DNA of 61,802 nucleotides, the filler included, from Catajapyx aquilonaris (Eukaryota), in NCBI GenBank assembly GCA_000934665.2. It is 2 parts of 2 records of this genome, joined end to end, with 100 filler letters (N's around TTAATTAATTAA, not from the genome) between each part and the next. Parts side by side here need not be neighbours in the genome. Positions count along the whole stretch, not along the records: positions 30,977 to 61,802 come from KZ539182.1; 1 more part is not named here. One strand, given 5' to 3'. The notes beneath the pieces are model-generated. The model was given only the letters and a program-made list of their open reading frames with translations. It was not told the origin of the DNA and ran no database searches. This document shows positions 15,004 through 61,802 of the stretch, piece after piece. The position numbers and the translations under genes were made by a program. Position 1 is the stretch's first letter. Every line of letters begins with the position of its first letter.

Positions 15004-16470
15004 CAAATTCAAGGAGTACCAAGGAGTAATAACGAGTGAGGTACCTGAGGAGTACCAGGGAGTACCACTCGCAGGTGTACACCGGAGTACCTACCGAAGT
15101 GGTTACCCCATTTGTTCTATACGCATTTGATTTGTGTTGTCGTAATCGCAAATACAGTACAATAGAGTGTGTATGTAAAAGATAAATATTTTCATATTTC
15201 TTATAAAACCCTATGTACATTATTTCGTGTTTTTTTGTTGTTTTGTTGTTTTTCCGTATAGTTTTCTTTAATCCTTGGATTATCCGACCTTTTCGGTTAT
15301 CCGGATGACGATGCCCCAGTCCTGTTGGTGATGGATAATCGGGGTTTTGCTGTACTTGAATTGCAGCGCTGTTTTTAATGCTGACTATTTGAAACATTTA
15401 TTATGCACATTTAATGGTTGAGGGTCATCGGGTTCTGAGGCCTCTTTTCCCTTTCTTTGGCAAGAATGGCAGTATACGTAGGGTATTTAACAGACTTCTG
15501 AGAGTGCCGAGACCAACAATACGGTACTGTATTTATCCACAGACCCCGCCACAAGGCACCTCGAAGCACAAAAACGAAGGGTCGTGTGTTTGGACTCAGA
15601 AGTGTTGCAGTGATGTGTTGTTATTGTCAAATTTTTCAAATTTTTCAATTATAAAAAATATTTAAATATCATTTTCAAACCGGCGTTAATGTGAAATGGC
15701 GTAAAATGGAACGGCGTAAAACGGGCACTTACTGTAATTGGTAACGCCATTTGGATTATGTAAGTGATGGATATTTGTAATGACTTATCTAGAATTCTAG
15801 ATGATTTATTGGTATTCCGTAAGACCAAGGAAAAGCATGGAACATTTGAGACGGGTTTTTCACATACCATGTGAGATAAATTGTACGCCAAGATATACAC
15901 ATGTGAGTTCGTGAGAAATGAAGCAGACCTAACAATTTTTGGGAATTACCATTTCAGATAAGGGCATTTGGTTGTTGATAAAAATATATAATTAATAAGT
16001 ATAATGCCAAAAACGTGAGATAATTATTGCCAATAGTTCGAGTTATGAAAACCTTTGAGTAAGAGATGTGAGAGGTGAGACGTGAGAAATTCCACAGTAA
16101 AATACACTCCATCTGTCAACTCATTGCCGGATACGTTTTTATAAAAGTCACAACTAAAAACAACGACTGTCATAGCAGATGTTTGGACCGGCTCATGGCA
16201 CTGGTATACTGATAGAGTGATAGTTAATACTATTCATAGAATTTTCTTCTACAGGCATGGATATACAGTACTGCATGTATATTTGGACCTATTCGTATAA
16301 TGGGACAGATTTCGGATGGGATAAATGCCTTTTACATTATCCGTATATCCATACATGTCTAATAGAGGTTATACCTTGGGTTACACATAAACCGACATAA
16401 ACCCTGTAGGTAGTTTCATATACATTTCTTAAATATACCGTCATTTATATGTGCAGATGCAGGTAACGAC

Positions 16471-17815
16471 CGACGGCAAGCCGCAGGTGCTAAAGGTGTA
16501 AATTTTGGTCCAGGACAAGAGGAAATATTGCTTTTGGCTTACGCGGATGATATAATACTGCTTACAGACAACTCATGTTATATGCAGAGAAATATAAATA
16601 TGTTAGTTGAATATTTTAGAGAGAACGAGCTACAAATAAACTTAGACAAAACCAAACTTGCTTGCTTCCACAAGGGTGGAAGAAAACCCGGGAAAATTTT
16701 CTTCTGGCAAGATCAAAAAATTAAAAACGAATCATCCTCTACATATCTAGGGGTCCCTTTTAAGTGCTCCGGCAAAATGAACGAGGCAGCGGAATTTTTC
16801 AAAAGAAAGGCTATAGCCGCAATAAATTCACTCTGGCCGGTCTTCATCAAATTGAAACTTAGAGACCTCACGGTGGCATTGAAACTTTTCAATGCTCACA
16901 TTGTGCCAGTCCTACTGTACGCATGCCCAATATGGGGACCCCAGCACTTAGCAGAGATACTCCAGGTCCAAACTTACGTCCTAAAGAAGTTTTTGAACCT
17001 ACCACGGACGACAGCAGCATACTTTGTATATTTAGAAACAGGAGTAATCCCACTTACTTTAAATGTTGCCAGAGCAACACTAAAATTTATACTTAATATA
17101 GAAACAAACTCAAAAAATGAACTCCTTAAAGCAGCATACTTATACACCACACAAAAAGAATTAAGCCCGAAAAACAGGTTAAATTGGCTGGCAAGTTGTT
17201 CGAAAACCTTCCAACCCGGTTCCAACCTCTAGCAGCAAATTGGAAAAAGTCAGCAGATGAGCTCCCAAAGATCCTTGAAACAATTGAACTGGCGCTTAAA
17301 AATGATCTAATAAACAGACTACAAAAAACTAGTAGATATATAAGCTACAAAGAGGTAAAAGACGAATTCCAGAGAGAAAGTTATTTTAACATAGACCTGC
17401 CAATATCCCACATTCGGTTGTTAGCAAATTTGCGAAATAACTCCTGCTATATAAAATTAAAACAAAACGAGCAACTTAAAATAGAATCAGAGGAACAGTG
17501 TGTATGGTGCAATTGGCAGGTAAACTGTTCAATTTTTCACATAATCTACGAGTGTCCCTTGTTCATACCTCCAAGACGGAAACACCTGTTTGATATACCT
17601 AAATTTCCACCTGACCAGATCCTGATGCTCTTCACTAATAGTCAAAAACCAGATGTTCATAAATTGTTCTCCTTTTTTCAAAACGTGATCAAAATTGTAA
17701 ATACAAATGAGCATTAATGCACACATACCTAATCTGTATGTAATACACATGTGGTTTTGTCCCCCAAAACGAGCCAAAGGCTCGAACACGGGGTAAATTA
17801 AATAAAAATAAAAAT
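16471..17815 (+). mobile_element. 5'-truncated non-LTR retrotransposon (RT plus C-terminal CCHC), frameshifted
   Basis: LLAYADDII RT motif in ORF 16528-17232, continuing in ORF 17184-17717 with CVWC...HIIYEC. It has a (TAAAAA)n tail and a TSD AGGTAACGAC at 16461-16470 and 17816-17825. Confidence 0.9.
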
Positions 17816-41699: not shown

Positions 41700-42714
41700 G
41701 TGACATCCAGATTACGTCTACTGATGCCTAAGCTAAACGAGACTATGAGGGTTTGAATAGAAATCGAATGTATAAAAAATTGTCACCCCCTTTTTGGATG
41801 TCACTTCCGGGAGTCACACCCAGAAAAGTGGATGTTCATACTATGATGTTCAACTACACCCAGACAAGATACAGGTCTACAGATGTTTCGTAGTTGGCAT
41901 TGCTCCATATTGGAATTTTCCCATGTTACCCTATTCCAGGCTCCAAATTAATGCTAATGGTTGAGGGGGGGGGGGGTTATTTTATTTTATGAGATTTCTG
42001 ATATACAGAATGCAATTTTGACGGATAATGAGGCATAAACATTTTTAAAGCCATGTACTAATACGATTGGATTTCACTAAAAACTGTAAAGTGNGCAATT
42101 TTGACGGATAATGAGGCATAAACATTTTTAAAGCCATGTACTAATACGATTGGATTTCACTAAAAACTGTAAAGTGCTATAAACTTACTTCTACTTACAA
42201 TAAAATTATGATGCATGTTTTACATAGTTCCGACGTTCAATTAACCCCACGATTATTCCGTGATATTGCATGCTGCTGGAATAGCCCCGTAATTTCGACA
42301 TCTGTTGAGGAAATGTTTAAATATTGTTATCGGCTATTTTCTTTTTAACATACATCAGCCATACAAAAAGGAATGCTTACCTGCCAAAGTTATTAGAAAC
42401 TTGCTTATGAATATCGGCACATAATCCCTACAGCCCTACAGGACATAAAATAACACCAAAGGTCATCCCATGCAATAAGCAAGGAGGAAAATACGTGAGC
42501 TTGTGTACAAGGTTGCTAAGTATTGACAAGTTCAATTACAAGTCTGTACATCGATATCGACATTTTCACTGTGGCAACGTATGAAATGCGTGAATTCAAA
42601 AGCACTTCTGTCTTATTTCATATATGATGCATGTTTCCGCACTCATAACGAGTTGGCGTGTCGGACTGTCGGAAAGCAGTCTGGACATTAGAGCAGTGCC
42701 AAGTCGACATAGCA

Positions 42715-44664
42715 ATGGGTATGCGTACAATTATGAAGATTCATATTAGTACTTGGCTAGTATTTCTCGCATTCAGAGTGACATCTGCCAGCGTTTCTAT
42801 GACAGACCAGACGGTGAACGGACATGTCGAGTCTCAGTTCGTGTGGAGAGCATTCAACAATGAGAGAGTTGTGGAGCTGGAATGTCCTTTGGTGGTGAGT
42901 CACGACGTGGGAAAATCTCTTCCTGCAAGTGTCCAGACGCTTCTGGCCAACATGTCCAGAGTGGGGAGACCAGTGGTCATCTCCAGATCAGAATCAAAAA
43001 GCACCTGGACCTGCGATGACTCAGTAGATGAAGGAGAAGTATATGGGGGGATGGATGTGGAATCTGCATCGAAGCAAGCCAAGTGCTCAGTACACCTGGT
43101 CATAACGTGTGCAGACAACTACGAGGATGTCATGGAGGCGCATTTGGATCCAGATGTGGCCCTGATAGGGGCAAAAACCACTCGCGACCCCTTCGTCTTT
43201 TGGATCAGGGATTGGGATGGCAACGAATTCCTGGCTGAAAAACCTGCATCCAACATCAAGTTGAAGGTGTCCCTCACTGCTGGAGATGACAATAGTATTC
43301 AGGTCAATTCAGTATGCCTTTTCTGCGATGGACCTACCTTCGACCATGTCATGTTCAATGTGACCACAAATGTTACATTGGACAAATATCTGTTTCGAAA
43401 CACAGCAAACGATCTGGGTGGTGTGAAACTTGAAGGATTGTATCTCCGTGAAATGGACGACACTATGTGCGATCCATATTTTCATTTCGCTGACATTTGT
43501 TTTATTGCCGAAGCCCTGAACTTCAAGTGGCATGTCAGCATCATCGACGTAGCTCAACTTATTAAAAATATGAGCCACGCTGCTCTGGTGTTGGAAGATT
43601 ACAGGCAAGGGAAACTCTCATTTTCGCCAATAAGTCCGTTGGTAGAGATTGTATACTCCTTATTTCACGTCGCACCCAAACACCTTCCGTTTCGTGTGTC
43701 TTTTCTCGCCAGGACCCCACGAGATTTGCAAACTCCGCTAATAATAGTGTATCCCTATGACACGTTATGTTGGTGTGCGTTTGCCATCGGCTTTTTTCTG
43801 TCTGGCTTGTTCCTTTGTACCTTCGCAAAGTTGCAGTTTAAAGTGATAGGATCACAGTCTCCTTTTCGCTCAGCATTGTATACCTCGAAATATCTTGCAC
43901 GCCATATCATTGCACAAATCTCCAACGACCTTTCTCGCGAGTTGTCGTCTTCAAGGGCATTTGTATCGATGTGGATATTTTTTGTACTAATTATAATGAC
44001 CGGATACGTGAGCAAGCTATATAGCTTCATAGCTTTCCCTCCGACGGAGGAGGTCCCAGCCAATATCCAGGAACTGGAGGATTCCAAGTTTGATATATAC
44101 ATAGAGGAATATATTTATGAAAACCTTATGCAGGATGTGACCTGGCGACAGCATTACAAACCACTGATCAAAAAATTAATTCAAGTACACGCGATATCTG
44201 GTTGTGTTCCTAACTTTATGCTCTATGACAGAGTCTGCCTGGGAGTTGACTTTATGTTGCAGAACATATCTCACGACATCGACGTGTACGGCAGGGGCAA
44301 CACGTTCATATCCACCGACAGTTTCGCCTCACTGAACTACGCTGCTCTTCTTGCCAAAGGCAAAGTCTACCAGGACGACTTCGATTACTGGATGGAAATA
44401 TATCACAGCTCGGGTCTTGAGACGATGAAAACCCCATTTATAAATCACCTGCATATGCTGCAGAAGTTTAGGAAGAGGCGAGAGGATGGCGTAGCTCTAG
44501 TGGAGGAAGGCACTGTGGCCATCACTTTGGAAAGCGTCGGGGGGCCTTTCTGGATTCTAGTCTTTGGTAGCGCAGCTTCTCTCGCTGCTTTTGTCAAAGA
44601 AACTCTAGTTCAAAATTTACTGTCTCGCTACACCAACAGCCTGCATTATCCGTATTTAAATTGA
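42715..44664 (+). CDS. Divergent ionotropic receptor (IR, iGluR-related chemoreceptor), intronless
   Basis: Signal-peptide-like N-terminus. TM-like segments IVYPYDTLCWCAF, SRAFVSMWIFFVLIIMTGYVSKLYSFIAFP..EVPANIQEL and ITLESVGGPFWILVFG..SLAAFVKE match the IR architecture. Confidence 0.8.
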   Translation: MGMRTIMKIHISTWLVFLAFRVTSASVSMTDQTVNGHVESQFVWRAFNNERVVELECPLVVSHDVGKSLPASVQTLLANMSRVGRPVVISRSESKSTWTCDDSVDEGEVYGGMDVESASKQAKCSVHLVITCADNYEDVMEAHLDPDVALIGAKTTRDPFVFWIRDWDGNEFLAEKPASNIKLKVSLTAGDDNSIQVNSVCLFCDGPTFDHVMFNVTTNVTLDKYLFRNTANDLGGVKLEGLYLREMDDTMCDPYFHFADICFIAEALNFKWHVSIIDVAQLIKNMSHAALVLEDYRQGKLSFSPISPLVEIVYSLFHVAPKHLPFRVSFLARTPRDLQTPLIIVYPYDTLCWCAFAIGFFLSGLFLCTFAKLQFKVIGSQSPFRSALYTSKYLARHIIAQISNDLSRELSSSRAFVSMWIFFVLIIMTGYVSKLYSFIAFPPTEEVPANIQELEDSKFDIYIEEYIYENLMQDVTWRQHYKPLIKKLIQVHAISGCVPNFMLYDRVCLGVDFMLQNISHDIDVYGRGNTFISTDSFASLNYAALLAKGKVYQDDFDYWMEIYHSSGLETMKTPFINHLHMLQKFRKRREDGVALVEEGTVAITLESVGGPFWILVFGSAASLAAFVKETLVQNLLSRYTNSLHYPYLN

Positions 44665-48301: not shown

Positions 48302-48852
48302 TTTATGAAAACGTTATGCAGGATGTGACCTTGCGACAGCATTACAAACCACTGATAAAAAAATTAATTCAAGTACACGCTTCATCTGGTTGTGCTCCTA
48401 ACTTTATGCTCTATGACAGAGTCTGCCTGGGAGCTGACTATATCTTGCAGAACATATCTCACGACATCGACGTGTACGGCCGGGACAACACATTCATATC
48501 CACCGACAGTTTCGCCTCACTGCACTACGCTGCTCTTCTTGCCAAAGGCAAAGTCTACCAGGACAACTTCGATTACTGGATGGGAATATATCACAGCTCG
48601 GGTCTTGAGACGAAGAAAACCCCATTTATAAATCACCTGCATATGATGCAGAAGTTTAGGAAGAGGCGAGAGGATGGCGTAGCTCTAGTGGAGGAAGGCA
48701 CTGTGGCCATCACTTTGGAAATCGTCGGGGGTGCTTTCTGGACTCTAGTCTTTGGTAGCGCAGCTTCTCTCGCTGCTTTTGTCAAAGAAACTTTAGTTCA
48801 AAATTTACTGTCTCGCTACACCAACAGCCTGCCTTATCCGTATTTAAATTGA
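48302..48852 (+). pseudogene. 3' fragment of a third ionotropic receptor copy
   Basis: Near-identical to 44115-44664; homology extends into the 3' flank to about 48937. The 5' part is replaced by transposon-like DNA with GGGGCACAGTGGACC repeats (about 47515-48170). Confidence 0.85.
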
Positions 48853-49215
48853 GCTATTCAATCGGAATATGTAACACAGTCTGACAAAAGAATGTTTCAA
48901 ACGAACCCTGACCCTATTGATTTATCAAAACTCTTAACCAGCCCCTGGACACTTCTATCCAAGCGCAATAGAAAAGGCCGATCCGTTATTCCTTCCCGCA
49001 GCGGCGCTAGTAAAAACAATAGAATCTCGCTGTGCGTGTCGTTCATTCGCCATAACAACTAGCGCAACTAGCGACCCTCCTTCCGATTACTAGGTTTATC
49101 CTTAGGGTTTATCAGCGACCCCCCTCCCGATTACTACCGATAGCTGACCGATAGCGTATACCAAGATGGCCGCAATATGGAGATGTTCACATCATGGCCA
49201 CCTCCAGTCAGCGCC

Positions 49216-50183
49216 AGTAGTATGAAAAATCGGAGTCCCATGCCAGGAGGGTGGTAAGATCTTTGAGGGGTATGCAACCCGCAATACATGTCAGGTCCTT
49301 GAAGGGTATGCACCCCGCAATACATGTGCAGATCCCCCAGGGGTATGCAACCATGCGATGGGTTGCGGGTTGCCTACCCCTCAAAGATCTGACCACCCTC
49401 CTGGCATGGGACTCCGTTTTTGGTCACCCTGATATAGTAGACCGGAGTCCTATGCCAGCAGGGTTACCACCATTGTTGTGAAGCAGTGTTGCCAATAGAT
49501 GCTAATAACGGCTATTAAAAATAGCATATAGCGGATAGCAGTCTTAATAGCTATTTTCTTAATAGCTATTTTGAGTGCATCCGAATGGCTAATAGCTATT
49601 TCGGGTGCGTTCGGATGGCTGTGCAAGGGGGTATGATTAAAAGCTATTTTGAGTGTATCCGAATGGCTAATAGCTATTTCGGGTGCATTCGGGTGGCTGT
49701 GCAAGGTTACTCCAGATTAATATTATTGTATAGTTAGAGTCTACAGCTTTATTTTGAACATTGTTGCCAGATGTAAATATTCTGATTTTACGTTCGAGTC
49801 CACAGCTTTATTTTGAGCATTGTTGCCAGATGTAAATATTCTGATTTTTAGTTATAATAGCTATTTTGAACATGTTTTACATAAGATGAATTCGGGCAGA
49901 TAAGGTAAGTACGTGTTGGGTTGCCAGATTTAATGTTAGGTTAATAACATCGTAATTAAACAATATATTGGCCTCCTCCAGTGCCAGGGGCTCATCACGG
50001 ATCGAGAGGTAGTAATCCCACACATGTACAGCGCACAGAGGAATATTGCTGAGTATGCTTGCATGCCATGGCAAGCAAGAGAGCTGGACTCTGACCGGGA
50101 AGGATGGCCGCCAGTTGTTTATGCTTTTTTTAATGCATTGGTGGCAGAGGGCGAAATAATAGAATAATGTTATAAGGCTTGTG
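49216..50183 (+). repeat. Left terminal inverted repeat of the Maverick
   Basis: Matches 61319-61802 in reverse complement; contains repeated AATAGCTATT palindromes and a subterminal hairpin. Confidence 0.8.
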
Positions 50184-50825
50184 ACCAGCGCCTTATTATA
50201 AAGGTTGCGGAAGGCTGTAAGCACATAATATTATGAATTACTAGAGTGGAAATGATGGTGTCATATAATCCATTAGGTATTGGTATTTTATGAATGTTGC
50301 GGAAGGCTAAATTTTTTTAAATGCATTGGTGGCAGACGGCGAAATAATAGAATAATGTTATAAGGCTTGTGACCAGCGCCTTATTATAAAGGTTGCGGAA
50401 GGCTGTAAGCACATCATATTATGAATTACTAGAGTGGAAATGATGGTTTCATATATTCCATTAGGTATGGGTATTTTATGAATGTTGCGGAAGGCTATAA
50501 AAATAATACTGTAGTTGAGGTTTAAAAATTCATTTATTACATCACGGCATAATCAGCTTTGCTCGATGAGACTGTGTACGTCACTGAAGCAGGCAAAAAA
50601 AAAGTCTAGTCGCGTCTAGATAATATCCGGTTTCTTTTTTCTTTCTCTTGCTTATTCAGTGTAAGCTAATGTGTGCCAACTTACAAGGTAAAGATAATAA
50701 TGGGAAGTCATTTATTATTCGGTTTTTTTAAATAATATAGATGGCTATAGAAGCATGTAAAATAATAGTTTTTTAAAAATAATATAAATTCATGAACATA
50801 ACACCTTCTCAATTACCATCTCATC

Positions 50826-50878
<53 letters not shown>

Positions 50879-51289
50879 GCTAAGGCTTGCTTTTATGCCA
50901 ACGCCTTATTATGAAGGTTGCGGAAGGCTGTAAAATAATACTGTAAATAATATTAATAATAACAATATCAAGAACAATAATAAAAAATTATTTTTATTCG
51001 TTCATAAGAAAGGAATAATGCGGCCTTTGTTCGAATAGCTACAACATCATCAAAGAGAAGGAGCCAGCTTGAGCATTTTGCGCGCAAGCAGGCTGCAGCA
51101 AAGTCCAACCACGTCTAGCCAATATCCTGTTTATTTTAAACCTCATTTTTCCAGGAAACAAAATAGGTTCTTTATTTTGAATGATGCGGAAGACTATAAA
51201 GATGAACGACGGGTAATAATAATGACAATATAAAGGAAACTCTTATCAAATTATAATGTTATTCCAATCTAACATTGATAGAAGACAGA

Positions 51290-52723
51290 ATGAGTAACAA
51301 TTCCTCATCCTCATCACATCGAAAGTGGATTACTTTTGACTCATTAAAGAACGAAACTACTCGCTTGCACACCTTTAAGCGATGGCCTGTATCGTTTCTG
51401 ACGCCTGAAGAGTTGGCCAGTGCAGGGTTTTTCTTCCTACAGAAGAAAGATTATGTCGAATGTGCTTTTTGTCGCGGCGTTGTTGGAGAGTGGCAAGAAG
51501 GGGATAAAGCAATCACAGAGCATAAAAAACACTTTGGATGGTGTCCATTTGTGAATGAACTACCTGTGGGAAACACCATGAGAGGTGAGGAGGAAGAGGA
51601 GGAGGAGGAGGAGGAACTAGAACTAAATGTATCACATCTTGGAAGGGGGTATGACACCTGCCAACGTGTTGTTACTGAAAGAAGACCAAATTCTGCACCT
51701 GAGCGAGGTGAGTAATGAGTCATGCTCATGTCGAAGAATATTCATTAAGTTACTTTCTCTTCACAGCAAAAAGCATGAATGGGAACATAAAATTGAGGGA
51801 AGGAGCCCACATTAAGTCCCTTGGACTGATTCGCATAGGGCATCAAGGTCCTCGCTTTCCAGAATTCATCGCTCTAGAAGTCAGATTGTCATCGTTCAAG
51901 GAATGGCCTTCAGAGATGAAACAAACCCCAGAGGAAACGGCATCTGCTGGATTTTATTATACAGGGCTATCAGATCATGTTAAGTGTTTCTCATGTTCCG
52001 GAGGTTTACGTAATTTTGACGAAGATGATGACCCATGGAAGGAACATGCGTACTGGTTCTTCCGTTGCGCATACGTGACACACGTCAAGGGAATATAGTA
52101 TATAAAATCAGTCCGACTGTCCGAGGCGAAGCAGGAATACAGAATATTGTGAAAAAACCCATAACGCTAGAAAGGTGTATGCAATCAGCTATGGTGAGGA
52201 GGGTTATGGAGATGGGATTTGAGGGTCGGTTGACTCGGCAAGTTATTCAAAAGCGCTTAGAAGAACGAGGAAGAATGTTTGGAAGCTTGGACAGTTTAGC
52301 TGAAGCATTGATGGATGAAGAGGACCGGTTAGAGAGAGAGTCAATGGGATCTCATGAGGTTAATGGCATTACGTAGGTGTCTACTTATTCATCACCACTC
52401 TTTATCGGATTTTTTTCCTGTAACTATATGATTTTTTTTACAGGCTTCAGAATGCTATGTCCACCTGTCCTCCTCCTCCTACAAAATTGGATCCACTAGA
52501 GCCACCCTCTTACAATGAGCATGTCGAGAGTATATGTCCCATCGAAAGCAATGACTTCATTGCAAAAAACATCCTCAACGCTTGCAACGTGTGCTTCAAT
52601 GAGGAGATGAATATAGCAATAATGCCATGTGGTCATATTTGTGGGGAGCGATGCTCATCATTGTTATCTACATGCCACATATGTCGCGCTCGCATTGAAG
52701 CAACCTTCAACATCTACATGTAG
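51290..52723 (+). pseudogene. iap: Inhibitor of apoptosis (BIR-BIR-UBA-RING), 3 exons, with premature stop and frameshift
   Basis: BIR1 RLHTFKRWP...CAFC...EHKKHFGWCPFV, BIR2 RLSSFKEWP...CFSC...EHAYWFFRCAYV, UBA-like VMEMGF, RING CNVC...PCGH...CHICR. Introns 51708-51766 and 52373-52443 keep phase. TAG at 52096-52098 and a frame change precede the UBA. Confidence 0.88.
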
Positions 52724-52857
52724 TCTGAGTCCCTATAACGAAACATCATGCGACTCAACCATCGTCAATGTCGGTCCGTCAATAGTGAACGTCGACTCGA
52801 CGAACATCATGTCGTTCATTGAGATTGACCAATTGACTATGATGTTATTTCACTCAT

Positions 52858-53255
52858 TAAAAGTCGTTTAAAATAACATCATGGTCGTAAGGTCGACGTA
52901 ACGTTCGACATTGACGTGGGGACGAACGACATGTCGCTCGATGGCTCGTGTAGACCGATCGTCATGTCGATGATTTAACGTTAAATTATCGTTAAAAGTC
53001 GTTAAAAATAACGTCCTGGTTGTATGATTTCGTTAAAATAAGGTCCTGGTCGTAAGGTCGACGTAACGTTCGACATTGACGTAGGGACGAACGACATGTC
53101 GCTCGATGGTTCGTGAAGGCCGTTCGTCATGACGACGATGTAACGTTAAATTATCGTTAAAGTCGTTTAAAATAACATCATGGTCGTATGGTCGACGCAA
53201 CGTTTGTCATTGACGTGGGGATGAACGGCATGTCGCTCGATGGCTCGTGAAGGTT
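52858..53255. repeat. CpG-rich tandem array, three copies (165 and 134 bp spacing)
   Basis: GGTCGTAAGGTCGACGTAACGTTCGACATTGACGT-like units at 52883, 53048 and 53182. Confidence 0.9.
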
Positions 53256-53407
53256 GATGGTCTACAAATTTTATACCTGAAATTTATGTACCTTAGGGAA
53301 ATAAAACTTTAAGTGAAACATTTTATTTCATTTCTAGTCATTTTATTTTTTACATGTCCCGAAGCATTGATGGTTCAACTAATATTCATTATACTGATAC
53401 GTTGAGA

Positions 53408-54061
53408 TTAGAGCGTCTCCTTATCAAAGCATTTCCTATATTTTCCATGGCGGGTACGGGTTTTATCAATGGTGAGAAACCCAAATGGTTTATGCCAACT
53501 TTTCAAGCACATTCTTTTAAATTCATCAAAACTGTCTAAGTCATTCGTACAATGATCCCGAAATATCATATTTAAATTACGATCACACTGAGGGAAAGCA
53601 ATAATCAAATTAGCATTATCTCTGATTAAGGCTGCAGGTATTTTGTTATATGTTTGAGCTAAATATACACAGTTTATATTTTTGTGACGTCCATGTGTGA
53701 ATATATCTTGAATTATGCGTTGCTTGTGAAGCATTACATCATCAAAAATAACAAGATGCGACATGCATGGGTCCAGCTCTCCTAACACACTTTCGTCTTG
53801 AGTAAAAATCAATCGGCTCTCTTCTCCGACTCTTGCAAAGGCCTCTCGCAGTTTTCGGTACATGGACTGATCAGCTGTAGAAGTAAAAATGATTAAACTA
53901 TCATAATCGATGTAACCAGGAATCAGGATTAAGTTGACGATCAAATTGGTTTTCCCACAGTTGCTAGGACCAACAATAATGCCTCGAATACTTTGAGGCA
54001 ATATTTTATGGTGCTTTTGCGTTTTCTGTTTGACAACGCCCATCATATTAAAGACTTCCAT
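53408..54061 (-). CDS. A32/FtsK-like DNA packaging ATPase
   Basis: Walker A GPSNCGKT, Walker B LVIFDD, and GRHKNINCVYLAQ...IP...IRDN. Confidence 0.92.
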   Translation of the reverse strand: MEVFNMMGVVKQKTQKHHKILPQSIRGIIVGPSNCGKTNLIVNLILIPGYIDYDSLIIFTSTADQSMYRKLREAFARVGEESRLIFTQDESVLGELDPCMSHLVIFDDVMLHKQRIIQDIFTHGRHKNINCVYLAQTYNKIPAALIRDNANLIIAFPQCDRNLNMIFRDHCTNDLDSFDEFKRMCLKSWHKPFGFLTIDKTRTRHGKYRKCFDKETL

Positions 54062-54098
54062 TCGAAAAAAATGCTGTTATGTGAACCGATGCTGACCT

Positions 54099-54916
54099 TT
54101 ATATATCTTCGTTCATATTTTCATCCCAGGAAAACCCCTGCGGATGCCAATTAGGATCATCATCATCAGGTGCCATCCACTTTCCTTTGGGAGTTTCTGC
54201 TGTTGGATCGAAGACAATCTCCCCTTCCTCCTCTTCTTCCAGGATAGGTGTTACTGACTCTCCTACAGGATCTGTTACCGTATCCATATGTTTATTTCCC
54301 GGAACGAACCATTCGAAAGAGTCCGGAGTGCCAACCTCATCGTCTGTTTCATAACATTCCTCAGCATCGGAAGTCACTTTCTTTGCATTAATCCAGTTGC
54401 TAATCATCATGACTTTTTTCATGCTACACTCATGATGGAGATAGCATTGCATCAAGGCATCAGAATAGTATTCCTTTAGAGAAATATAGTTAGGACATCC
54501 TAGAGTTTCCAGATTAACAACTTCACGCTGCAAGTAACTGGAAAACATATGACATTGTTCTGCACCTGAAATGAACGATAAAAAATGACATATATACGGT
54601 ATTTCATATTTTCATATATCTCACCTTTGGCGTAAATAGTTTTATAGTTCATTGTAGCGGCCGTTAGACACTTGCAAGTGTATTTATGGGGTATGCATCC
54701 AGCGGAGAAAGGAATACCGGTCAAATAATTCCTTATGTATAAATTTTCATCCATAATATTACTAGGCCAATGCTCCTTAGGCGAGTGAAACAGGAAGTGA
54801 TTCAATTCTGGAGTCTCAGCTCCATTCGCAACTGCTAGTGTTGTCACTTCCTTCGGAAATAGATGTCCCTCAGCATCCTTGTAGCAATTGGAAGCGATTA
54901 TTACACCTGGCTCCAT
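54099..54916 (-). CDS. Polinton DEDD-exonuclease-like protein, 2 exons
   Basis: A GT-AG intron at 54624-54566 joins TIYAKG-AEQCHMFSSYLQREVVNLETLGCP in frame. Motifs FPKE, HFLF and NLETLGCP; the expected first acidic motif appears absent. Confidence 0.65.
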
Positions 54917-54977
54917 TCTGTCGAGTGAGAAATAAATCGGAAAATTCGCGACTTTATATAAATGCAATTTACACACC

Positions 54978-56240
54978 ATGATCGTGTTAAATATGCGCGC
55001 GCATGCATCCGGGTCGGGTAATCTGCTTAACAAACTTATCGATAAGTTACCGCTGGAATTGCACATTCCAGGTTACCGTTTCTGCGGACCTGGAACACGA
55101 TTAGAAAAGAGATTGCAAAGTGGAGATGTTGGGATTAATGATTTGGACGAAGCCTGTCGGGAACATGACATTGCTTATGCCAGAGGCGATGATAAGGGGG
55201 AGGCGGATAAAATATTAGCAGAAAAGGCCTGGCGCTTGGTTAAGAGAAGCGATGTATACCTGAAACAGAAGGTGGCTGCAGTGGCCGTAGCTGCTGCAAT
55301 GAGGCTAAAGCGACTTATCGAGGGCCGTGGGGTCATGGCTAGGATAGCAGAAGAAGTCCATCGTTCGGCCAGGCATAATTTTTCTAGGCGTCATGTGATA
55401 ACCAAGGGCCCGAATGATTTGTGGCAGGCTGACCTGGTCGAGATGATACCTTACTCACGATCTAATAAGGGATATAAATATATTCTAATGATAATAGACA
55501 CCTTTACGAAATACGCATGGGCAGTGGCATTGAAGAAAAAGACCGGTGCGGAAGTAACTGCTGGTATCAAGAGGGTTGTGGGGAAAATGTATAAACCTGC
55601 ACACTTACAGACCGACAAGGGAAAGGAATTTTTTAATCGAGAATTTTCCAAGCTGATGCGAGAGCTGAACATTAATCATTATGCCACCAATTCTGACCTG
55701 AAGGCGTCGATTGTTGAGAGATTGAACCGAACAATAAAGAATCGCATGTATAGACGGTTCACCGCTCTCGGTCATTACCGTTGGGTTGATTTATTGCCAA
55801 GTATAATGAAAAACTATAATCAAAGTTATCATCGTACTATAGGCACAACACCTGATAAAGCATATGAATGCGTAGAGAGTGTGGGGAAAAAAATAGCTTC
55901 CTCTCTTAGAGTCCAACTGAAGAAACCTAAATATAAAGTGGGGGATCTAGTACGTGTGTCAAAAATTAGGGGAAAATTTCACAAAGGCTATTTGCCGAAT
56001 TGGAGTCATGAATTATTTCGGATTGAAACGGTGAGACGTAAATCAACGGATCCTGTTACATACACATTGCGTGGGGTGGACGGCTCATTTTATGAGCAGG
56101 AACTCCTGAGAACAAGCATTCCAGACGTGTATTTAGTTGAAAAAGTGCTCAGAAGAAAGGGGGATAAACTTTTTGTTAAATGGAAAGGATTTAGTTCCAC
56201 GTACAACAGCTGGATATCAAAGAGTGACGTAGAGGTATAA
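54978..56240 (+). CDS. Parvovirus-type phospholipase A2 fused to rve integrase and chromodomain
   Basis: PGYRFCGPG...LDEACREHDIAY (PLA2); WQADL, QTDKGKEF, IVERLNRT (DDE triad); YLVEKVLRRKGDKLFVKWKGF...NSWI (chromodomain). One uninterrupted ORF. Confidence 0.92.
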   Translation: MIVLNMRAHASGSGNLLNKLIDKLPLELHIPGYRFCGPGTRLEKRLQSGDVGINDLDEACREHDIAYARGDDKGEADKILAEKAWRLVKRSDVYLKQKVAAVAVAAAMRLKRLIEGRGVMARIAEEVHRSARHNFSRRHVITKGPNDLWQADLVEMIPYSRSNKGYKYILMIIDTFTKYAWAVALKKKTGAEVTAGIKRVVGKMYKPAHLQTDKGKEFFNREFSKLMRELNINHYATNSDLKASIVERLNRTIKNRMYRRFTALGHYRWVDLLPSIMKNYNQSYHRTIGTTPDKAYECVESVGKKIASSLRVQLKKPKYKVGDLVRVSKIRGKFHKGYLPNWSHELFRIETVRRKSTDPVTYTLRGVDGSFYEQELLRTSIPDVYLVEKVLRRKGDKLFVKWKGFSSTYNSWISKSDVEV

Positions 56241-56293
56241 ATAGGGGGTACATATTCCTGACCTTGGTCACATATTCCTGACATTGGTCACAC

Positions 56294-57349
56294 ATGGATC
56301 AGATTCGCAAGTACGCTAAAGCAGATCAGCTGGAAGAATTAGTGCGACTAAAATTTCGGGAGAAGGGTGAGCGCAAAGCTAAAGGCGATGAACAATTAGG
56401 TGATTTTTTTAACCCGTTGACCAAAAAATTAGACGAGCAGCAGCAGCAGCTACTGAAAAGAGAGGAGGTGTCGTACATTGACTTGGAGCCACAGTACGAA
56501 TCTCCCATGATGTACGAATCTCCCATGATAAAAGAAGAGCGAGTCTCTATTAAACAAGCTTCCCCAAGTAGCAAGCGTAGGAGACTTTCATGGCAACCTA
56601 CTCCTACTCATAACACTTCTTTAGAGCAATATATTACTATCCCCCCTACTCTGAATATTGATCATATTCTCACTTCTATGGATCCTATTCCCACCACTAG
56701 CACACACCCTTCTCCCACTGCGAGTAGTAGGTGTCCTTCTCCCTCCTCAAGCACTTCTAGTTTCAGTGTGCATTCTAAGCCTAAGCACATGTTGAGTGAA
56801 GCATTTAGGAGTCAGAATGACCCGGACATAGTATTTGGTGTGAGAGACGTAGAGGATGGGTACAAAATTGGCAGTGAACTTATAACGCTTCTACCAGATG
56901 GAAATTCTATTCAAATCAAGAAAAAGAGGTATGAATTAACACCAGGATTGGTTGAGCTTCTGATTGACCGTAATCCTCATATTTATACTAAGGAGGACTT
57001 TACTAATTATAGCGTCATTTTACACGATACCAATGCCATGAGGCAGGGAAATGATGCTGAAAATTCTAAACCAAAATCTAGCGTCAGCACGAAATGGAGC
57101 CAGTTAGTTAAACCCATATGGCAGGATATGAAATCGGTAACAGGAGAAGGTGTGAAAACTCTTCGAGAAGTTGATTTCTTGCCTTATAAAAGTCCGGATG
57201 ATCTACTTTATCGTTTGCGGGATATTTTAGCTTCACGCAATGCGGGCAACACCTCTCATTTCAACGAGGCCATCTCAATAGCGGAGGAACTACAAAAAAA
57301 TAATTACATAACCTCACATCAGTTCATCATTTTACGTAAAATTATTTGA
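56294..57349 (+). CDS. Conserved Polinton protein of unknown function
   Basis: 351 aa ORF between integrase and capsid genes, with YELTPGLVELL and a C-terminal LLYRLRDILASRNAGNTSH.NE pattern I associate with arthropod Polinton ORFs. Confidence 0.65.
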   Translation: MDQIRKYAKADQLEELVRLKFREKGERKAKGDEQLGDFFNPLTKKLDEQQQQLLKREEVSYIDLEPQYESPMMYESPMIKEERVSIKQASPSSKRRRLSWQPTPTHNTSLEQYITIPPTLNIDHILTSMDPIPTTSTHPSPTASSRCPSPSSSTSSFSVHSKPKHMLSEAFRSQNDPDIVFGVRDVEDGYKIGSELITLLPDGNSIQIKKKRYELTPGLVELLIDRNPHIYTKEDFTNYSVILHDTNAMRQGNDAENSKPKSSVSTKWSQLVKPIWQDMKSVTGEGVKTLREVDFLPYKSPDDLLYRLRDILASRNAGNTSHFNEAISIAEELQKNNYITSHQFIILRKII

Positions 57350-57422
57350 TTTATTGTGGAAGCATATAATTATATGGTATATATTATATATGCACATAAA
57401 GAATGATACTATTATCATTACA

Positions 57423-58130
57423 ATGTTTTTGGAGATTAGTGGCAGGTGTCCGTTAATTAAGGCTTCGTTCTCTCCACCCATACCTTTACATGGAAAATAT
57501 GAATTAGCGTTACTTGGGTTCAATACTCTTTATTCTTCCCCAAATATCGATAACTCGAATTGTGAGTTACAATATTCCAAAGACAATAGAAACCCTGAAA
57601 CAATTAAGTTCCCCTACGGTCACTGGGAAGCGAAGGAAATTGCGGATTACATTAACAAAAAATTACCCGAAATATATATTTCCATAAATGATAACACTGG
57701 ACGGACAGAAATAACATCAAGTAATTCTCGTAAACTTGTTCTATTTTTTTCCGAGCCTAATTCGATTGGAAAAGTGTTGGGTTTCCGTGACAACGTATCC
57801 ATAAACCAGGAATCGCCTCTGGTAGTAAGCAAATATCTCATTAATATCACCAAGGTCTCTTCGTTTCAATTTCACTGTAATATTGTGAGTCAGGGGTATG
57901 TCAATGGGAAGGAAACAAACTTGTTATATTCATATTATCCCGATGTTGCACCCCACTATTCAATAGTCAAGGAAATTGTCAACCCCATTTACCTACCGTT
58001 ATCAGCCTCATTTATTGACGAGATTTACATAAATTTAACTGATCAGGAGGGTCAAAATCTATATAATAGTAGGGATGTGATCACATTTCGCATTCACATT
58101 CAACCTGTGAAACGAGATGTTGTCACGTAA
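57423..58130 (+). CDS. Minor capsid (penton-like) protein
   Basis: FSPPIPLHGKYELALLGF...CNIV..GYVNG...IYLPL...I.INLTDQEG, directly upstream of the major capsid gene. Likely start is MFLEISG at 57423. Confidence 0.8.
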   Translation: MFLEISGRCPLIKASFSPPIPLHGKYELALLGFNTLYSSPNIDNSNCELQYSKDNRNPETIKFPYGHWEAKEIADYINKKLPEIYISINDNTGRTEITSSNSRKLVLFFSEPNSIGKVLGFRDNVSINQESPLVVSKYLINITKVSSFQFHCNIVSQGYVNGKETNLLYSYYPDVAPHYSIVKEIVNPIYLPLSASFIDEIYINLTDQEGQNLYNSRDVITFRIHIQPVKRDVVT

Positions 58131-59406
58131 AGCTCAAAATGTCCTGCATGGATTAATTTCATCACCACTTGGCGATGGGGAGGGAGACGGAGACGTATTT
58201 AAAAGAAGAGAATTAATCGAGTATCAACCAGACACTTCCGATTCAAATTTTCCTAATACTGACATTGTACACCGTTTACCACGACTTGATAGCTACGTAG
58301 ACCTATCAAATTCGTATTATTACTTTAGGGGATCCATTGTGAAAAATGTTGAAGGTGTAGACGTTAGGTTAGACCCAGCTGACAAGATTCATCCTGTAAA
58401 CAACTTTATTTTGTATCATTTCGATAGATTTTCTTGTACTGTGAATGGGTCAGAGGTGGCCTACTTACAGAATTTGGGTCGTGCTTCGACTCTCAAATAC
58501 ATATCATGCTTGCATGAGAAAAATTTGGATATGGAGGGATGGAACCTTTCTGTGAATAGGACCTCCGACTCCCGCATAAGCCCAGACGGTCAATTCTCTT
58601 ACATTATTCCTCTAAAACGTTTTTCTGGATTTTTCGAGGATTTAAACCAGATATTTTACGGACCTTCCATGAAATGCGTTTTGAGTCGAAACGATTTGGT
58701 GCGAGATACGTTACATGTGTATGAAGGTGATGCTGAAGATACTCATAATGCTTACAGGATAAATTTCGAGCAGATTTCATTATTCATTCCTCACCTAGAG
58801 CCGACTCTGGCCACTCACACTAAGTACCTGTCTCTCCTACAACAGGAGGTTCCTTTGGAATTAAAATATAGGGATTTCAGGTGTGGAACTCTTCCATTGA
58901 CTAAGGGAGAAAGCGTGTTTTCGTTCAACGTACCTATTAGCGGTTTGATGGTAAATGTACCGCGGTATGTGGTCATTGGATTCCAAACTGGAAGAGAAAA
59001 TGAATTGAAAAAAGAAACCTCTGAATTTGATCATATATTTCTCCGAGATATAAGTTTATTGTTGAATAATCAACGCTTTCCAGGTAAAGATTTGAATCTG
59101 AACTGGGAACGAATGGAATGTCAGAAATTATACTTTATGTTAATGAAGTTTAAAGACTCTTACTATGGAAGGGAGCTCGAAACGCAGGTGAGCCTCGACG
59201 AATTTAAGAAAAAATGTCCCATAGTAGCATTTGATTGTAGTCATCAGAATAGTGAGCTAACCACTTCTAGTTCCAATATGACACTGGACATACGGTTGAG
59301 CAAGCCCTTAGTAGCTGCTACTCGAATGTATTACCTTTTGATATATGGGAGAACATTTCACATGACTTTTGGGGCGTCCCAAATGATGGAGGTCACAATA
59401 CTATAA
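58117..59406 (+). CDS. Double-jelly-roll major capsid protein
   Basis: 429 aa, beta-rich, with IPLKRFSGFFED, PRYVVIGFQT.R, FDH..LRDI.L.LN.QRFP and PIVAFDCS.Q patterns typical of Polinton MCPs. Confidence 0.85.
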   Translation: MLSRKAQNVLHGLISSPLGDGEGDGDVFKRRELIEYQPDTSDSNFPNTDIVHRLPRLDSYVDLSNSYYYFRGSIVKNVEGVDVRLDPADKIHPVNNFILYHFDRFSCTVNGSEVAYLQNLGRASTLKYISCLHEKNLDMEGWNLSVNRTSDSRISPDGQFSYIIPLKRFSGFFEDLNQIFYGPSMKCVLSRNDLVRDTLHVYEGDAEDTHNAYRINFEQISLFIPHLEPTLATHTKYLSLLQQEVPLELKYRDFRCGTLPLTKGESVFSFNVPISGLMVNVPRYVVIGFQTGRENELKKETSEFDHIFLRDISLLLNNQRFPGKDLNLNWERMECQKLYFMLMKFKDSYYGRELETQVSLDEFKKKCPIVAFDCSHQNSELTTSSSNMTLDIRLSKPLVAATRMYYLLIYGRTFHMTFGASQMMEVTIL

Positions 59407-59439
59407 ATTTCATACGCAATTTACTCATCACTGTCAATT

Positions 59440-59721
59440 ATGCCTAAGAGAAAGAATGCGAAGGTTGTGCGAAAGTCTACATCTCTAAAAAAAAAAGGCG
59501 GATTCCTTCCTCTTCTGATACCCGCCATAGGAGCCCTCGTTTCCGCAATCACAGGAGTGACCAGCGTGGCGTTAAATGCGAAGGCCAATCAGAGAAGATT
59601 GCAGGCTATAGAAAAACAGACCGAAATACTGTCTCAGTTGCGGAAGGGTCAGGGTCTACGCCTAAAACCTTATCCCAAGAAAGGCTCTGGTACGAAGAAA
59701 AAAAAGAGATTAGTCCGCTAA
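59440..59721 (+). CDS. Small basic virion core/membrane-active precursor (adenovirus pX/pVII-like)
   Basis: K/R-rich, with KKGG|FLPLLIPAIGALVSAITG hydrophobic segment and further GxG sites. Confidence 0.7.
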   Translation: MPKRKNAKVVRKSTSLKKKGGFLPLLIPAIGALVSAITGVTSVALNAKANQRRLQAIEKQTEILSQLRKGQGLRLKPYPKKGSGTKKKKRLVR

Positions 59722-60134
59722 CAAATGAAGACATTATATATTTGGCTAGATGGTTACAAGTTAAAGGATTTAAGGGTGTATTTATGCGGGACGAACTCAA
59801 GGGTCGCGTTTCCCAGCAAGAATGTGCCATTGTTAATCTAGATAATAGCAGAGGTGATGGAACACATTGGGTGACCTATTGGAAAAATGGGGAAGATATA
59901 TTTTATTTTGATAGTATAGGTGATATAAAGCCTCCCAACGAGGTGATCAAACATCTTGGACCCAATATAATATATAATACCAGTCGATTGCAAAATCCAG
60001 AAGACGGCGAACCGTCTTGCGGACACCTTTGTCTGATTATCCTCTCGGATTTGAGCCAAGGTCACATCTACGAGGATATTTTACATAGATATGAATCGGT
60101 TTGGAAAGTGTTGCTCCCATCGAGAAGTGAATAG
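59700..60134 (+). CDS. Adenain-like cysteine protease
   Basis: GTHWV, YFDSIG, RLQ and CGHLC catalytic motifs. The frame is open upstream through SPLTNEDI with no ATG before 59784. Confidence 0.88.
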   Translation, partial: KKEISPLTNEDIIYLARWLQVKGFKGVFMRDELKGRVSQQECAIVNLDNSRGDGTHWVTYWKNGEDIFYFDSIGDIKPPNEVIKHLGPNIIYNTSRLQNPEDGEPSCGHLCLIILSDLSQGHIYEDILHRYESVWKVLLPSRSE

Positions 60135-60609
60135 GATGGGGTTGATGAGCCAGTTTGGAGTGGGTATGAATTTTGTGGAGTTTCGGGGGAAGCGATTGAA
60201 TAATGTTGCAGCCCCGGAAGGAGATACGGATTGTGTGACCCTGGGACATCTCAAATCAGTGGCACTACTTAATGAAGAAGATACATATTACAATGCTGGA
60301 GGGAAACGCATAGGTCAAGTGCAAGCCCCAGAAAATGATGCCGACGTGGTCACGCTATCGCACATGCATAGGCTATGTCTAACTATGAATAAACATCACT
60401 ATGCAGCTAATAAACGAAAAATTATTCAATTAGGACCACCAAAGGAGTCCGAAGATGCTGTAAATAAGGATTACGTCGATTCATTAATTCGTACTATGCT
60501 CGAATTAATGATGAATATTGTTAATGAAGAAAAGGATGTAAAAAATCAGATATATAAATTGTTGCACGACCCCCCTATCCATGATGATAATATTCTTATG
60601 AACGAATAA
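60091..60609 (+). CDS. Fibre-like repeat protein
   Basis: Three repeats KRLNNVAAP..DTDCVT, KRIGQVQAP..DADVVT and RKIIQLGPP...EDAVNKDYV; AATAAA overlaps the stop. Confidence 0.6.
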   Translation: MNRFGKCCSHREVNRMGLMSQFGVGMNFVEFRGKRLNNVAAPEGDTDCVTLGHLKSVALLNEEDTYYNAGGKRIGQVQAPENDADVVTLSHMHRLCLTMNKHHYAANKRKIIQLGPPKESEDAVNKDYVDSLIRTMLELMMNIVNEEKDVKNQIYKLLHDPPIHDDNILMNE

Positions 60610-61318
60610 AAATAATTATTTTTATTATAGTTGTTGATGTTGTTATTATTATTTATAGTATTATTTTACAGCCTTCCGCAACCTTAACAGGATATTGGCT
60701 AGACGTGGTTGGACTTTGCTGCAGCCTGCTTGCGCGCAAAATGTTCAAGCGGGCTCCTTCTCCTTGATGATGACGTAGCTATTCGAACAAAGTCGGCATT
60801 ATTCCTCATGTGCTGCACTCAAAAATATAAATCTTAATTATTATTTACAGTATTATTTTACAGCCTTCCGCAACCTGCATAATAATTATTTTTTTACGGA
60901 CTTCCGCAACGAATAGCTACATCTGGCATCAATGTTCAAAATAAAGATCTAGACTGTAACTATACGATATGGTGACATAAATCGGGGTCCCATGCATGGA
61001 GGGTGGTCAAATTTTTGAGGGGTAGGCAACCTGCAACCCATCGCATGATTGCATACCCCTGGGGGATCTGCACATGTATTGCGGGGTGTATACCCTTCAA
61101 GGACCTGACATGGACATGTTATTAATAATAACCCCTTGCATAGCCGTCTGAACGCACCCAAAATAGCTATTAGCCATGTAAAACATGTCCAAAATAGCTA
61201 TTTTATATCAACTAAAAATCAGAATAGTTACATCTAGCAACAATGCTCAATTTTTCCATGCTTCAACATCCATCATAAATAATAATAATTATTATTATTA
61301 ATAAACCTGTACTCGCCT

Positions 61319-61802
61319 TCACAAGCCTTATAACATTATTCTATTATTTCGCCCTCTGCCACCAATGCATTAAAAAAAAAACATCAATAACTGGCGGCCA
61401 TCCTTCTCGGTCAGAGTCCAGCTCTCTTTTCCTGCGATGGCATGAAAGCTTACTCAGCATTATTCCTCTGTGCGCTGTACATGTGTGGGATTACTACCTC
61501 TCGATCCGTGATGAGCCCCTGGCACTTGAGGAGGCCAATATATTGTTTAATTACGATGTTATTAACCTAACATTAAATCTGGCAACCCAACACGTACTTA
61601 CCTTATCTGCCCGAATTCATCTTATGTAAAACATGTTCAAAATAGCTATTATAACTCAAATTCTGAATATTTACATCTGGCAACAATGCTCAAAATAAAG
61701 CTGTGGACTCTAACTATACAATAATATTAATCTGGAGTAACCTTGCACAGCCACCCGAATGCACCCAAAATAGCTATTAGCCATTCGAATGCGCCCAAAA
61801 TA
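61319..61802 (-). repeat. Right terminal inverted repeat (partial, cut by window edge)
   Basis: Reverse complement of about 49646-50183. Confidence 0.85.

Follow-up and report, generated by a model that had tools for sequence, protein, structure and literature searches.

A Maverick/adintovirus-like element with a full virion module, a PLA2-integrase fusion and no detected DNA polymerase in the genome of Catajapyx aquilonaris

Analysis of a 61,802-nt stretch of the Catajapyx aquilonaris genome (assembly GCA_000934665.2; two parts of two records joined by 100 filler letters, with positions 30,977 to 61,802 from KZ539182.1; hereafter the window) revealed a Maverick-like element that begins at position 49216, is roughly 13 kb in length, and comprises 9.5 kb of almost wholly coding DNA between inverted repeat arms. 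The element encodes a full virion module and an integrase and carries no gene for a family B DNA polymerase of the protein-primed type (pPolB; PolB in general). We interpret it, with a probability of roughly 55%, as a non-autonomous, polymerase-less derivative of an adintovirus or Maverick that needs the polymerase and terminal protein of a related element acting on shared ends. What is observed directly is its gene content, the lack of a polymerase, the rearrangement of its genes, and the occurrence of related copies within the sample. An initial annotation of the sequence had recognized the Maverick/Polinton identity, the virion module, the integrase, and the lack of pPolB, and had proposed that the element is either a deletion derivative or a member of a distinct polymerase-less lineage. 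The identification and gene inventory stand, while the two proposed origins are not separated by the evidence presented here.

The region from 49137 to 61802 was translated into 115 stop-to-stop frames of at least 40 aa and scanned against Pfam (14 frames at E ≤ 0.01 and 107 at E ≤ 1, with six in both sets). None of the 115 frames matched a DNA polymerase family at E ≤ 1, and none matched a helicase or primase family; the sole P-loop protein of the element is its packaging ATPase. Searches with tblastn, using as queries a PolB fragment and a 1295-aa probable PolB from two related contigs (L005 and L004, respectively; see below), gave a best E of 0.7 anywhere in the window. Likewise, none of the 22 long frames located in the window outside of the element matched a family B DNA polymerase, and the only polymerase-type match there (RVT_1, 16414-17229) was to a fragment of a reverse transcriptase. 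No frame in the element exceeds 434 aa, and its genes are adjacent or overlapping except at a 684-nt spacer (52724-53407), which is the sole non-coding gap longer than 100 nt, leaving no room for a polymerase of ~1000 codons. The tblastn and profile searches that the initial annotation had suggested thus produced no pPolB candidate, and its statement that no family B polymerase lies between the arms was borne out.

The element therefore lacks the PolB that is part of the definition of both adintoviruses and, in the strict sense, Polintons/Mavericks, whereas the other features of strict Polintons/Mavericks are present, namely an rve-type integrase, a virion module, and long terminal inverted repeats (TIRs; the right arm is incomplete at the window end). 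The integrase also has the rve domain and C-terminal chromodomain of adintovirus integrases, with the Chromo match falling below the Pfam cut-off. The helicase, primase, or PolA fusion that replaces pPolB in polinton-like viruses (PLVs) is absent.

Table 1. Features of the element and its left border (positions in the window; strand "." where none applies).
Feature	Position	Strand	Evidence and remarks
Candidate target-site duplication copy, AGCGCC	49210..49215	.	Sequence reading; adjoins left terminus
Left TIR, mosaic of sub-repeats; first letters AGTAGTATG	49216..51131	.	Pairing with right arm; loose contig end at 49216
IAP-like gene, BIR-BIR-UBA-RING	51290..52723	+	Pfam; four predicted exons: 51290-51707, 51767-52083, 52143-52372, 52444-52723
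Tandem repeat, ~3 copies of 134-165 nt	52868..53306	.	Inside spacer 52724-53407
Packaging ATPase (FtsK/HerA, A32 type)	53408..54061	-	Pox_A32 2.2e-8; uninterrupted
Two-exon gene, possibly Maelstrom/DEDDh-like, 252-aa Cys/His-rich product	54099..54916	-	Exons 54916-54625 and 54565-54099, including stop
PLA2-integrase fusion open reading frame, 420 codons	54978..56240	+	Phospholip_A2_4 1.7e-9, rve (PF00665) 5.8e-16, Chromo 4e-4; uninterrupted
ORF355, conserved adintovirus-type gene, 351 aa	56294..57349	+	Homologs in L002-L005, E 1e-17 to 1e-31
Penton (minor capsid protein, single jelly roll)	57423..58130	+	Homology, structure model; uninterrupted
Major capsid protein (double jelly roll)	58117..59406	+	PF21738 DJR-like_dom 2.6e-42; uninterrupted
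Adenovirus pX/mu-like basic core protein with hydrophobic segment	59440..59721	+	Adeno_PX 2.2e-8
Adenain-like cysteine protease frame	59448..60134	+	Homology, family profile; overlaps pX, -1 frame relative to pX
Short fibre-like protein, 172 aa	60091..60609	+	Repeated matches to 446-aa fibre-like frame of L002, E 6e-11
Right TIR, cut by window end	60593..61802	.	Inverted pairing with left arm

The virion module and integrase reported by the initial annotation were confirmed by Pfam, homology, fold-match, and profile evidence (Table 1). The relatives used for comparison comprised five IMG/VR contigs recovered through alignment of the major capsid protein (MCP; L001-L005), four more recovered through the integrase, and L006, which came from a metagenome scan. 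The ATPase shares 36-40% identity with the ATPases of L001-L005 (E 1e-44 to 1e-54), and Walker A and B motifs are readable in its translation. In a comparison set made up of IMG/VR contigs with adintovirus-like gene sets, the MCP matched theirs at BLASTP E values of 1e-32 to 1e-37. A full HMMER scan of 1.84 billion representatives recovered 756 relatives of the MCP at E ≤ 1e-3, the best full-length of which are 26-32% identical. Two closer MCP fragments are known, one of them (58% identical) on L006, a 2367-nt public contig that was the sole close relative found. Of the 3768 candidates in a word-seeded search with the MCP, none reached E ≤ 1e-3, and IMG/VR returned no matches in close-clade MCP searches. 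The nearest Atlas clusters are mostly arthropod.

The open reading frame (ORF) upstream of the MCP was identified as the penton gene, because the ORF in the same position is homologous in six relatives (50% identity to L006 and 28-37% to L001-L005) and because its structure model (pLDDT 80) was matched by Foldseek to the mavirus penton (6g41, E 1.7e-7) followed by atadenovirus and Sputnik pentons. The protease was identified from its 39-47% identity to protease ORFs of L001-L006, the conservation of H, D, Q, and C residues, and matches of its family profile in the PDB to adenain (1avp, 6.6e-5) and the African swine fever virus S273R protease (9e-5). The short fibre-like protein is related to an L002 ORF that matches Phage_T7_tail at 4e-22; its own match to this family (3.7e-4) lies below the cut-off. 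The pX-like protein matches the C-terminal parts of PLA2 proteins in L001, L003, and L005 as well as the separate pX of L006. The initial annotation had described the ORFs for ATPase, MCP, minor capsid protein (penton), protease, and integrase as uninterrupted, which holds for four of them; the protease frame is open but lacks an ATG ahead of the conserved N-terminal region.

The junction between pX and protease has a recurrent organization. The protease frame begins before the pX-bearing frame has ended in the element (59448-59721) and in five relatives (L001 2334-2394, L002 3425-3509, L003 4424-4527, L005 5247-5349, and L006 1906-2155), lying in the -1 frame relative to it in five of these six cases and in +1 in L003. 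At least four of the six (the element, L001, L002, and L006) have no ATG before the conserved N-terminal part of the protease. Each overlap contains an uninterrupted A run of 8-14 nt, located at the start of the overlap in L006 and represented in the element by A8 at 59698-59705. On sequence grounds, this arrangement looks like programmed -1 frameshifting or transcriptional slippage that would generate a pX-protease fusion. The words "slippage" and "homopolymer" are not present in the main text of PMC8502044.

The integrase is joined in a single ORF to a parvovirus-type PLA2-like domain. The PLA2 domain occupies residues ~15-111 and the rve integrase begins at residue ~122, followed by the C-terminal chromodomain (residues 405-433); the rve and Chromo pair is also found in L003, L004, L005, and L008. 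Catalytic motifs are readable in the translation of both parts (HD in the PLA2 domain and D-D-E in the integrase). In all relatives, the two halves match separate genes. A PLA2 domain is listed in none of the 120 best integrase relatives (48-54% identity over ~70% of the query), and the fusion occurs in none of the six IMG/VR loci that match the fusion protein (four integrase loci and two PLA2-only loci). Contig L011 aligned with the PLA2 part alone and belongs to an unrelated RNA virus. A 1109-nt contig assembled from raw reads crosses the PLA2-integrase junction with 1-8 differences. The fusion suggests that the integrase is packaged in the particle with a membrane-active domain. The linker (55290-55400) contains LIEGRG followed by a Met that could start a stand-alone integrase. 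LIEGRG fits the adenovirus protease consensus, (M/I/L)XGX-G, a motif for which the estimated chance expectation in a protein of this size is ~0.2-0.3. The adjacent ORF355 has a structure model with an overall pLDDT of 57 in which the C-terminal half is folded; a wide fold search with this model returned only generic helical matches, the best of which (Z 6.2) fell on a helical end.

The IMG/VR relatives share an Alpha-adintovirus-like layout. When the capsid block is oriented rightward, this layout consists of PolB reading rightward; integrase, ORF121, ORF373, and ATPase reading leftward; and PLA2-pX, protease, penton, and MCP reading rightward. A polymerase, or a large probable one, is present in all four contigs that extend far enough past the integrase or capsid block, and therefore a polymerase is taken to be the ancestral state of the group. 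L005/L009 and L008 match PF03175. Large ORFs in L004 (9885-13769, 1295 aa) and L010 (10623-12488, 622 aa) match no Pfam polymerase family and contain Endonuclease_7 matches (3.4e-7 and 6.6e-6, respectively); these probably represent a divergent PolB class with an endonuclease insert. Contigs L001-L003 and L007, which bear an MCP or integrase, end too early to show the polymerase region.

The element departs from this layout in several respects. Its pX is a separate gene located after the MCP and followed by the protease, whereas in the relatives a pX-like part forms the C-terminus of the PLA2 protein, and the positions of its integrase and ORF355 also differ. The fused PLA2-integrase, the separate pX, and the moved integrase and ORF355 therefore indicate several rearrangements rather than one deletion. 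The penton-MCP-pX-protease order is common to the element and L006, and L006, which is only 2.4 kb long, has no polymerase between pX and protease. Collectively, the rearranged order, its partial sharing with L006, and the raw-read contigs argue against a plain one-step deletion or misassembly. At such capsid divergence, however, the rearrangements themselves say little about when the polymerase was lost.

These same observations bear on the alternative that the element belongs to a distinct polymerase-less virus lineage with a capsid and integrase of its own, for which replication would fall to host polymerases or take place solely in the proviral state, with no need for a helper polymerase. 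In several independent respects, the architecture is unlike that of any of the five MCP relatives, the PLA2-integrase fusion was found neither among the best integrase relatives nor at the IMG/VR loci, the MCP is distant from its best full-length relatives, all core ORFs are open, and a separate record (L006) has the same order of penton, MCP, pX, and protease with no polymerase between the last two. Yet L006 covers a short interval, no second full copy was seen among the contigs, and no known small double-stranded DNA virus group has been described that is without every replication protein. PLVs and virophages without PolB, as described in the portions of two reviews drawn on here, carry helicase or primase fusions (PMC5499653, PMC11161782). 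We consider an independent lineage of this kind to be rather improbable.

Contigs assembled independently from raw reads (four runs of one sample) provided a check on the assembly and a view of related copies; their depths are uncalibrated, since the flank is high-copy and there is no single-copy gene reference. With 0-15 differences, these contigs confirm 51840-52395, 53534-54461, 54525-55633 (which spans the PLA2-integrase junction), 55695-56579, 56660-57326, 57902-58340, and 59081-60649 (which runs from the end of the MCP to the right TIR). It is very unlikely that the polymerase gene of this copy was collapsed out of the short-read assembly at repeats. N gaps are present elsewhere in the assembly and the family is multi-copy, and the repeat-bearing spacer region (52395-53534), which is not covered by the contigs listed, contains a tandem repeat and variable small joints (53250 to 53342 and 53299 to 53442). 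Collapse at this location is the one way in which a polymerase could be hidden, and we regard it as highly improbable. The element itself contains no Ns, seven stretches of it are confirmed by independent contigs, and the remaining gaps between those contigs fall inside continuous ORFs that align with relatives from end to end.

In run X1, 496 contigs aligned to the element, including 121 at ≥99% identity, 143 at 95-99%, 131 at 90-95%, and 101 at <90%. The summed (uncalibrated) contig depth in most TIR bins was 10-40 times that of virion-gene bins. A diverged contig matched in collinear patches that start at the PLA2 domain and extend via ORF355 and the penton as far as the MCP. An ATPase of ~81% identity was found on a contig of 5 kb, and another contig contained a joint, from 49867 to 61378, that links both arms without the interior. 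The many related contigs together with this joint therefore indicate that the family is multi-copy and forms internal-deletion derivatives. Among exact-match contigs of X1, depth was about threefold higher in the ATPase-integrase part (55, 51, and 46) than in the protease-fibre part (15), again in uncalibrated units, which suggests that the former parts are shared by more than one copy.

The existence of internal-deletion derivatives in the sample is what would be expected if the element were a one-off recent deletion and a dead relic, that is, a single copy that lost its polymerase after insertion and has been immobile since, and such a deletion could have left its scar between the IAP gene and the ATPase in the form of the 684-nt spacer with its repeats. 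The remaining genes are nevertheless open with intact catalytic motifs, the depth of the ATPase-integrase contigs suggests sharing by more than one copy, and the gene order is more than one event removed from that of the relatives. An origin as an isolated deletion relic is unlikely.

Pairing between the TIR arms is divided into blocks that are 28-396 nt long and 82-97% identical (for example, 49792-50184 with 61714-61319, 95.5% over 396), and both arms are composed of sub-repeats of 36, 59, 78, and 188 nt, the block order of which differs between arms. As the initial annotation had noted, both arms are thus present, and its projection that the right arm continues ~430 bp past the window, for a total of ~13 kb, was closely reproduced. 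The window end lies opposite left-arm position 49567 or 49645, from which 351-429 nt of right arm are predicted past the window and a whole element of ~12.9-13.0 kb. The terminal palindrome recurs internally at 60971-61112. This copy was rejected as a candidate for the true right end because the outermost ~70 nt of the left terminus are missing there in either orientation. A frame of ~116 codons is open in both arms, reading outward (49877-50230 on the minus strand and 61279-61629 on the plus strand); it contains no Met ahead of the final residue, gave no Pfam match, and shows ~96% nucleotide identity between arms.

At the left junction, the sequence reads ...CAGTC AGCGCC followed directly by the terminus, and the high-copy flank ends at 49216. 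Target-site duplications of Polintons/Mavericks are ~6 bp, as is the candidate listed in Table 1. In all four runs, a raw-read contig tracks the flank up to 49216 and then continues into unrelated letters. This fits a copy of the flank without the insertion, and it supports the left boundary. The flank (48654-49215) is a very high-copy repeat, with a summed contig depth of >2000 compared to 15-80 inside the element, and the element is therefore located in repetitive DNA.

Two genes of the element are predicted to be spliced, and because only these two have introns, they are likely to have been acquired from a host. The IAP-like gene encodes two BIR domains (3.9e-20 and 7.6e-23), UBA_BIRC2-3 (3.9e-6), and zf-C3HC4_3 (1.2e-9) by Pfam. 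These domains are spread over four frames that are joined into one 414-codon open frame by predicted introns of 59, 59, and 71 nt; the middle donor (GTCAAG) is weak, and a frame break at that point is an alternative. The second gene has a predicted 59-nt intron (GTGAG..TTTCAG). In the ESM Atlas, the second-ranked cluster for its exon 1 (score 0.87) contains PF13017 Maelstrom in 80% of members and is followed by DEDDh exonuclease clusters. We treat the Maelstrom-like assignment, which rests on this score, as a lead only. Pfam returned no match for the product, Maelstrom included; the 28 candidates from a word-seeded search with exon 1 included no match; and a PDB sequence search with exon 2 gave only a chance match (E = 0.74). 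By blastp, the gene has no convincing counterpart in L001-L006, the two weak matches of exon 1 (E ~4e-4) being 106 aa at 23% identity to an unannotated L005 frame and a 19-aa match.

Poly(A)-signal-like motifs of the IAP gene and the ATPase gene converge from either side on the tandem repeat in the spacer, and each unit of the repeat contains TGACGT (CRE-like) and the palindromes AACGTT and GTCGAC. Judged from these motifs, an enhancer, an origin, or a deletion scar are each possible roles for the repeat.

If the element is a non-autonomous derivative, as we favor, its gene complement would fall into two retained sets: one for building and filling capsids (MCP, penton, ATPase, protease, pX core protein, and short fibre) and one for chromosomal insertion (integrase and long TIRs). 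The protein-primed DNA polymerase would have been lost with no substitute replicase, and the integrated element would be copied passively with the chromosome. To multiply or to produce infectious particles, the element would then rely on a related autonomous element present in that cell, whose polymerase and terminal protein would act on the TIR ends that the two have in common, by analogy with a satellite virus or a non-autonomous transposon. Both this helper dependence and any current activity are inferred. The IAP may delay death of the producing cell, and the Maelstrom-like protein might interfere with silencing by PIWI-interacting RNAs (piRNAs).

Several points weigh against this interpretation. 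No sister copy combining these TIR ends with a polymerase was seen in the window and the raw-read contigs covered here, and a helper is therefore assumed. The layout is not a simple deletion of that of the relatives, and an old independent lineage fits equally as well as a recent derivative. Moreover, the ORFs remain open even though one TIR arm departs from the other by 3-18% in sequence and also in the order of blocks. This is odd for an old neutral insert, and the high-copy TIRs may be partly chimeric in the assembly. Finally, contig depths are uncalibrated and hence provide no copy number. A bolder proposal is that more than one species carries a satellite-type lineage of adintoviruses that has given up its polymerase for good. 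Such a lineage would have its own capsid, a virion-borne PLA2-integrase for membrane breach and insertion, an apoptosis inhibitor taken from a host, and a Maelstrom-like protein with the potential to dampen piRNA silencing, and would be replicated by a helper adintovirus or by the host; we view this proposal as unlikely.

The window is eukaryotic: it has N gaps and short genes with introns, and the neighbors of the element include HSP20, F-box/LRR, and ionotropic-receptor genes. An intronless 671-codon frame located 4.5 kb upstream of the element (42649-44661) has a ligand-gated ion channel domain (PF00060, 5.6e-8) and is probably a variant ionotropic receptor.

For Mavericks and adintoviruses in animals, most conclusions about replication and spread continue to be drawn from gene content. 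An element with everything for capsid formation and integration and with no replicase would offer a natural test of whether shared TIR ends can be served in trans by the polymerase and of whether this virus group includes satellite-like parasites in animals. The spliced IAP and Maelstrom-like genes would, in turn, represent host gene uptake that could counter cell death and transposon silencing. Should the element be no more than a local deletion copy, it would count as an ordinary non-autonomous derivative of an element type that is already known. In helper-dependent viruses, as in non-autonomous DNA transposons, the ends and some functions are kept while replication is borrowed from a helper; most non-autonomous transposons lose coding capacity. 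Unlike most of the latter, the element described here keeps 11 genes, and the likeness in helper dependence is one of functional analogy.

Comparison with published systems, as described in the parts of the cited works drawn on here, places the element among known types while distinguishing it from each. Adintoviruses are defined by OTU-PolB, hexon, and chromodomain integrase (Buck et al., 2024; PMC11071296), and their accessory genes include a PLA2 with an adenovirus-like C-terminal domain and IAP or Bcl2 homologs (Starrett et al., 2021; PMC8502044). Genomes with adenovirus-class virion genes and other replicases have been described (PMC11071296), as have PolB-lacking, TIR-flanked polintons of Pieris mannii that are apparently still amplified and mael-associated polintons in moths (Pannagram preprint, 10.1101/2025.02.07.637071). 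That the lack of PolB (P. mannii) and the occurrence of IAP homologs, PLA2 genes, and chromodomain integrases (adintoviruses) are already known argues against high novelty. These portions of the literature describe no compact element with a whole virion kit, a PLA2-fused integrase, and no replicase, and the supplements of the papers may hold more PolB-less cases.

Like the P. mannii insertions, the element is a TIR-flanked polinton that carries other hallmark genes and no polB. In P. mannii, however, polB loss coincides with long interspersed nuclear element or long terminal repeat cargo and near-identical polB-bearing copies exist, whereas the element is compact and has no transposon in place of polB. 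It resembles Tlr1 and PLVs in its capsid module, and Tlr1 in pairing an rve integrase with the lack of a canonical pPolB that bears an exonuclease (Krupovic et al., 2016, PMC5499653; 2024, PMC11161782). Tlr1 and PLVs differ in having a helicase, pPolB-S1H, or other replicase and usually no protease, whereas the element has a protease and no replicase (PMC5499653, PMC11161782). It corresponds closely to Alpha-class adintoviruses and arthropod Mavericks, with which it shares a double jelly roll hexon, penton, FtsK/HerA ATPase, adenain, a PLA2-like membrane-active domain, a pX-like basic domain, an rve integrase with C-terminal chromodomain, an IAP-type gene, long TIRs, and an animal host. In contrast to Alpha-class adintoviruses as so described, the element has no OTU-PolB, its PLA2 is fused to the integrase rather than to the pX-like domain, its pX and protease follow the MCP, and it carries an extra spliced, possibly Maelstrom-like gene.

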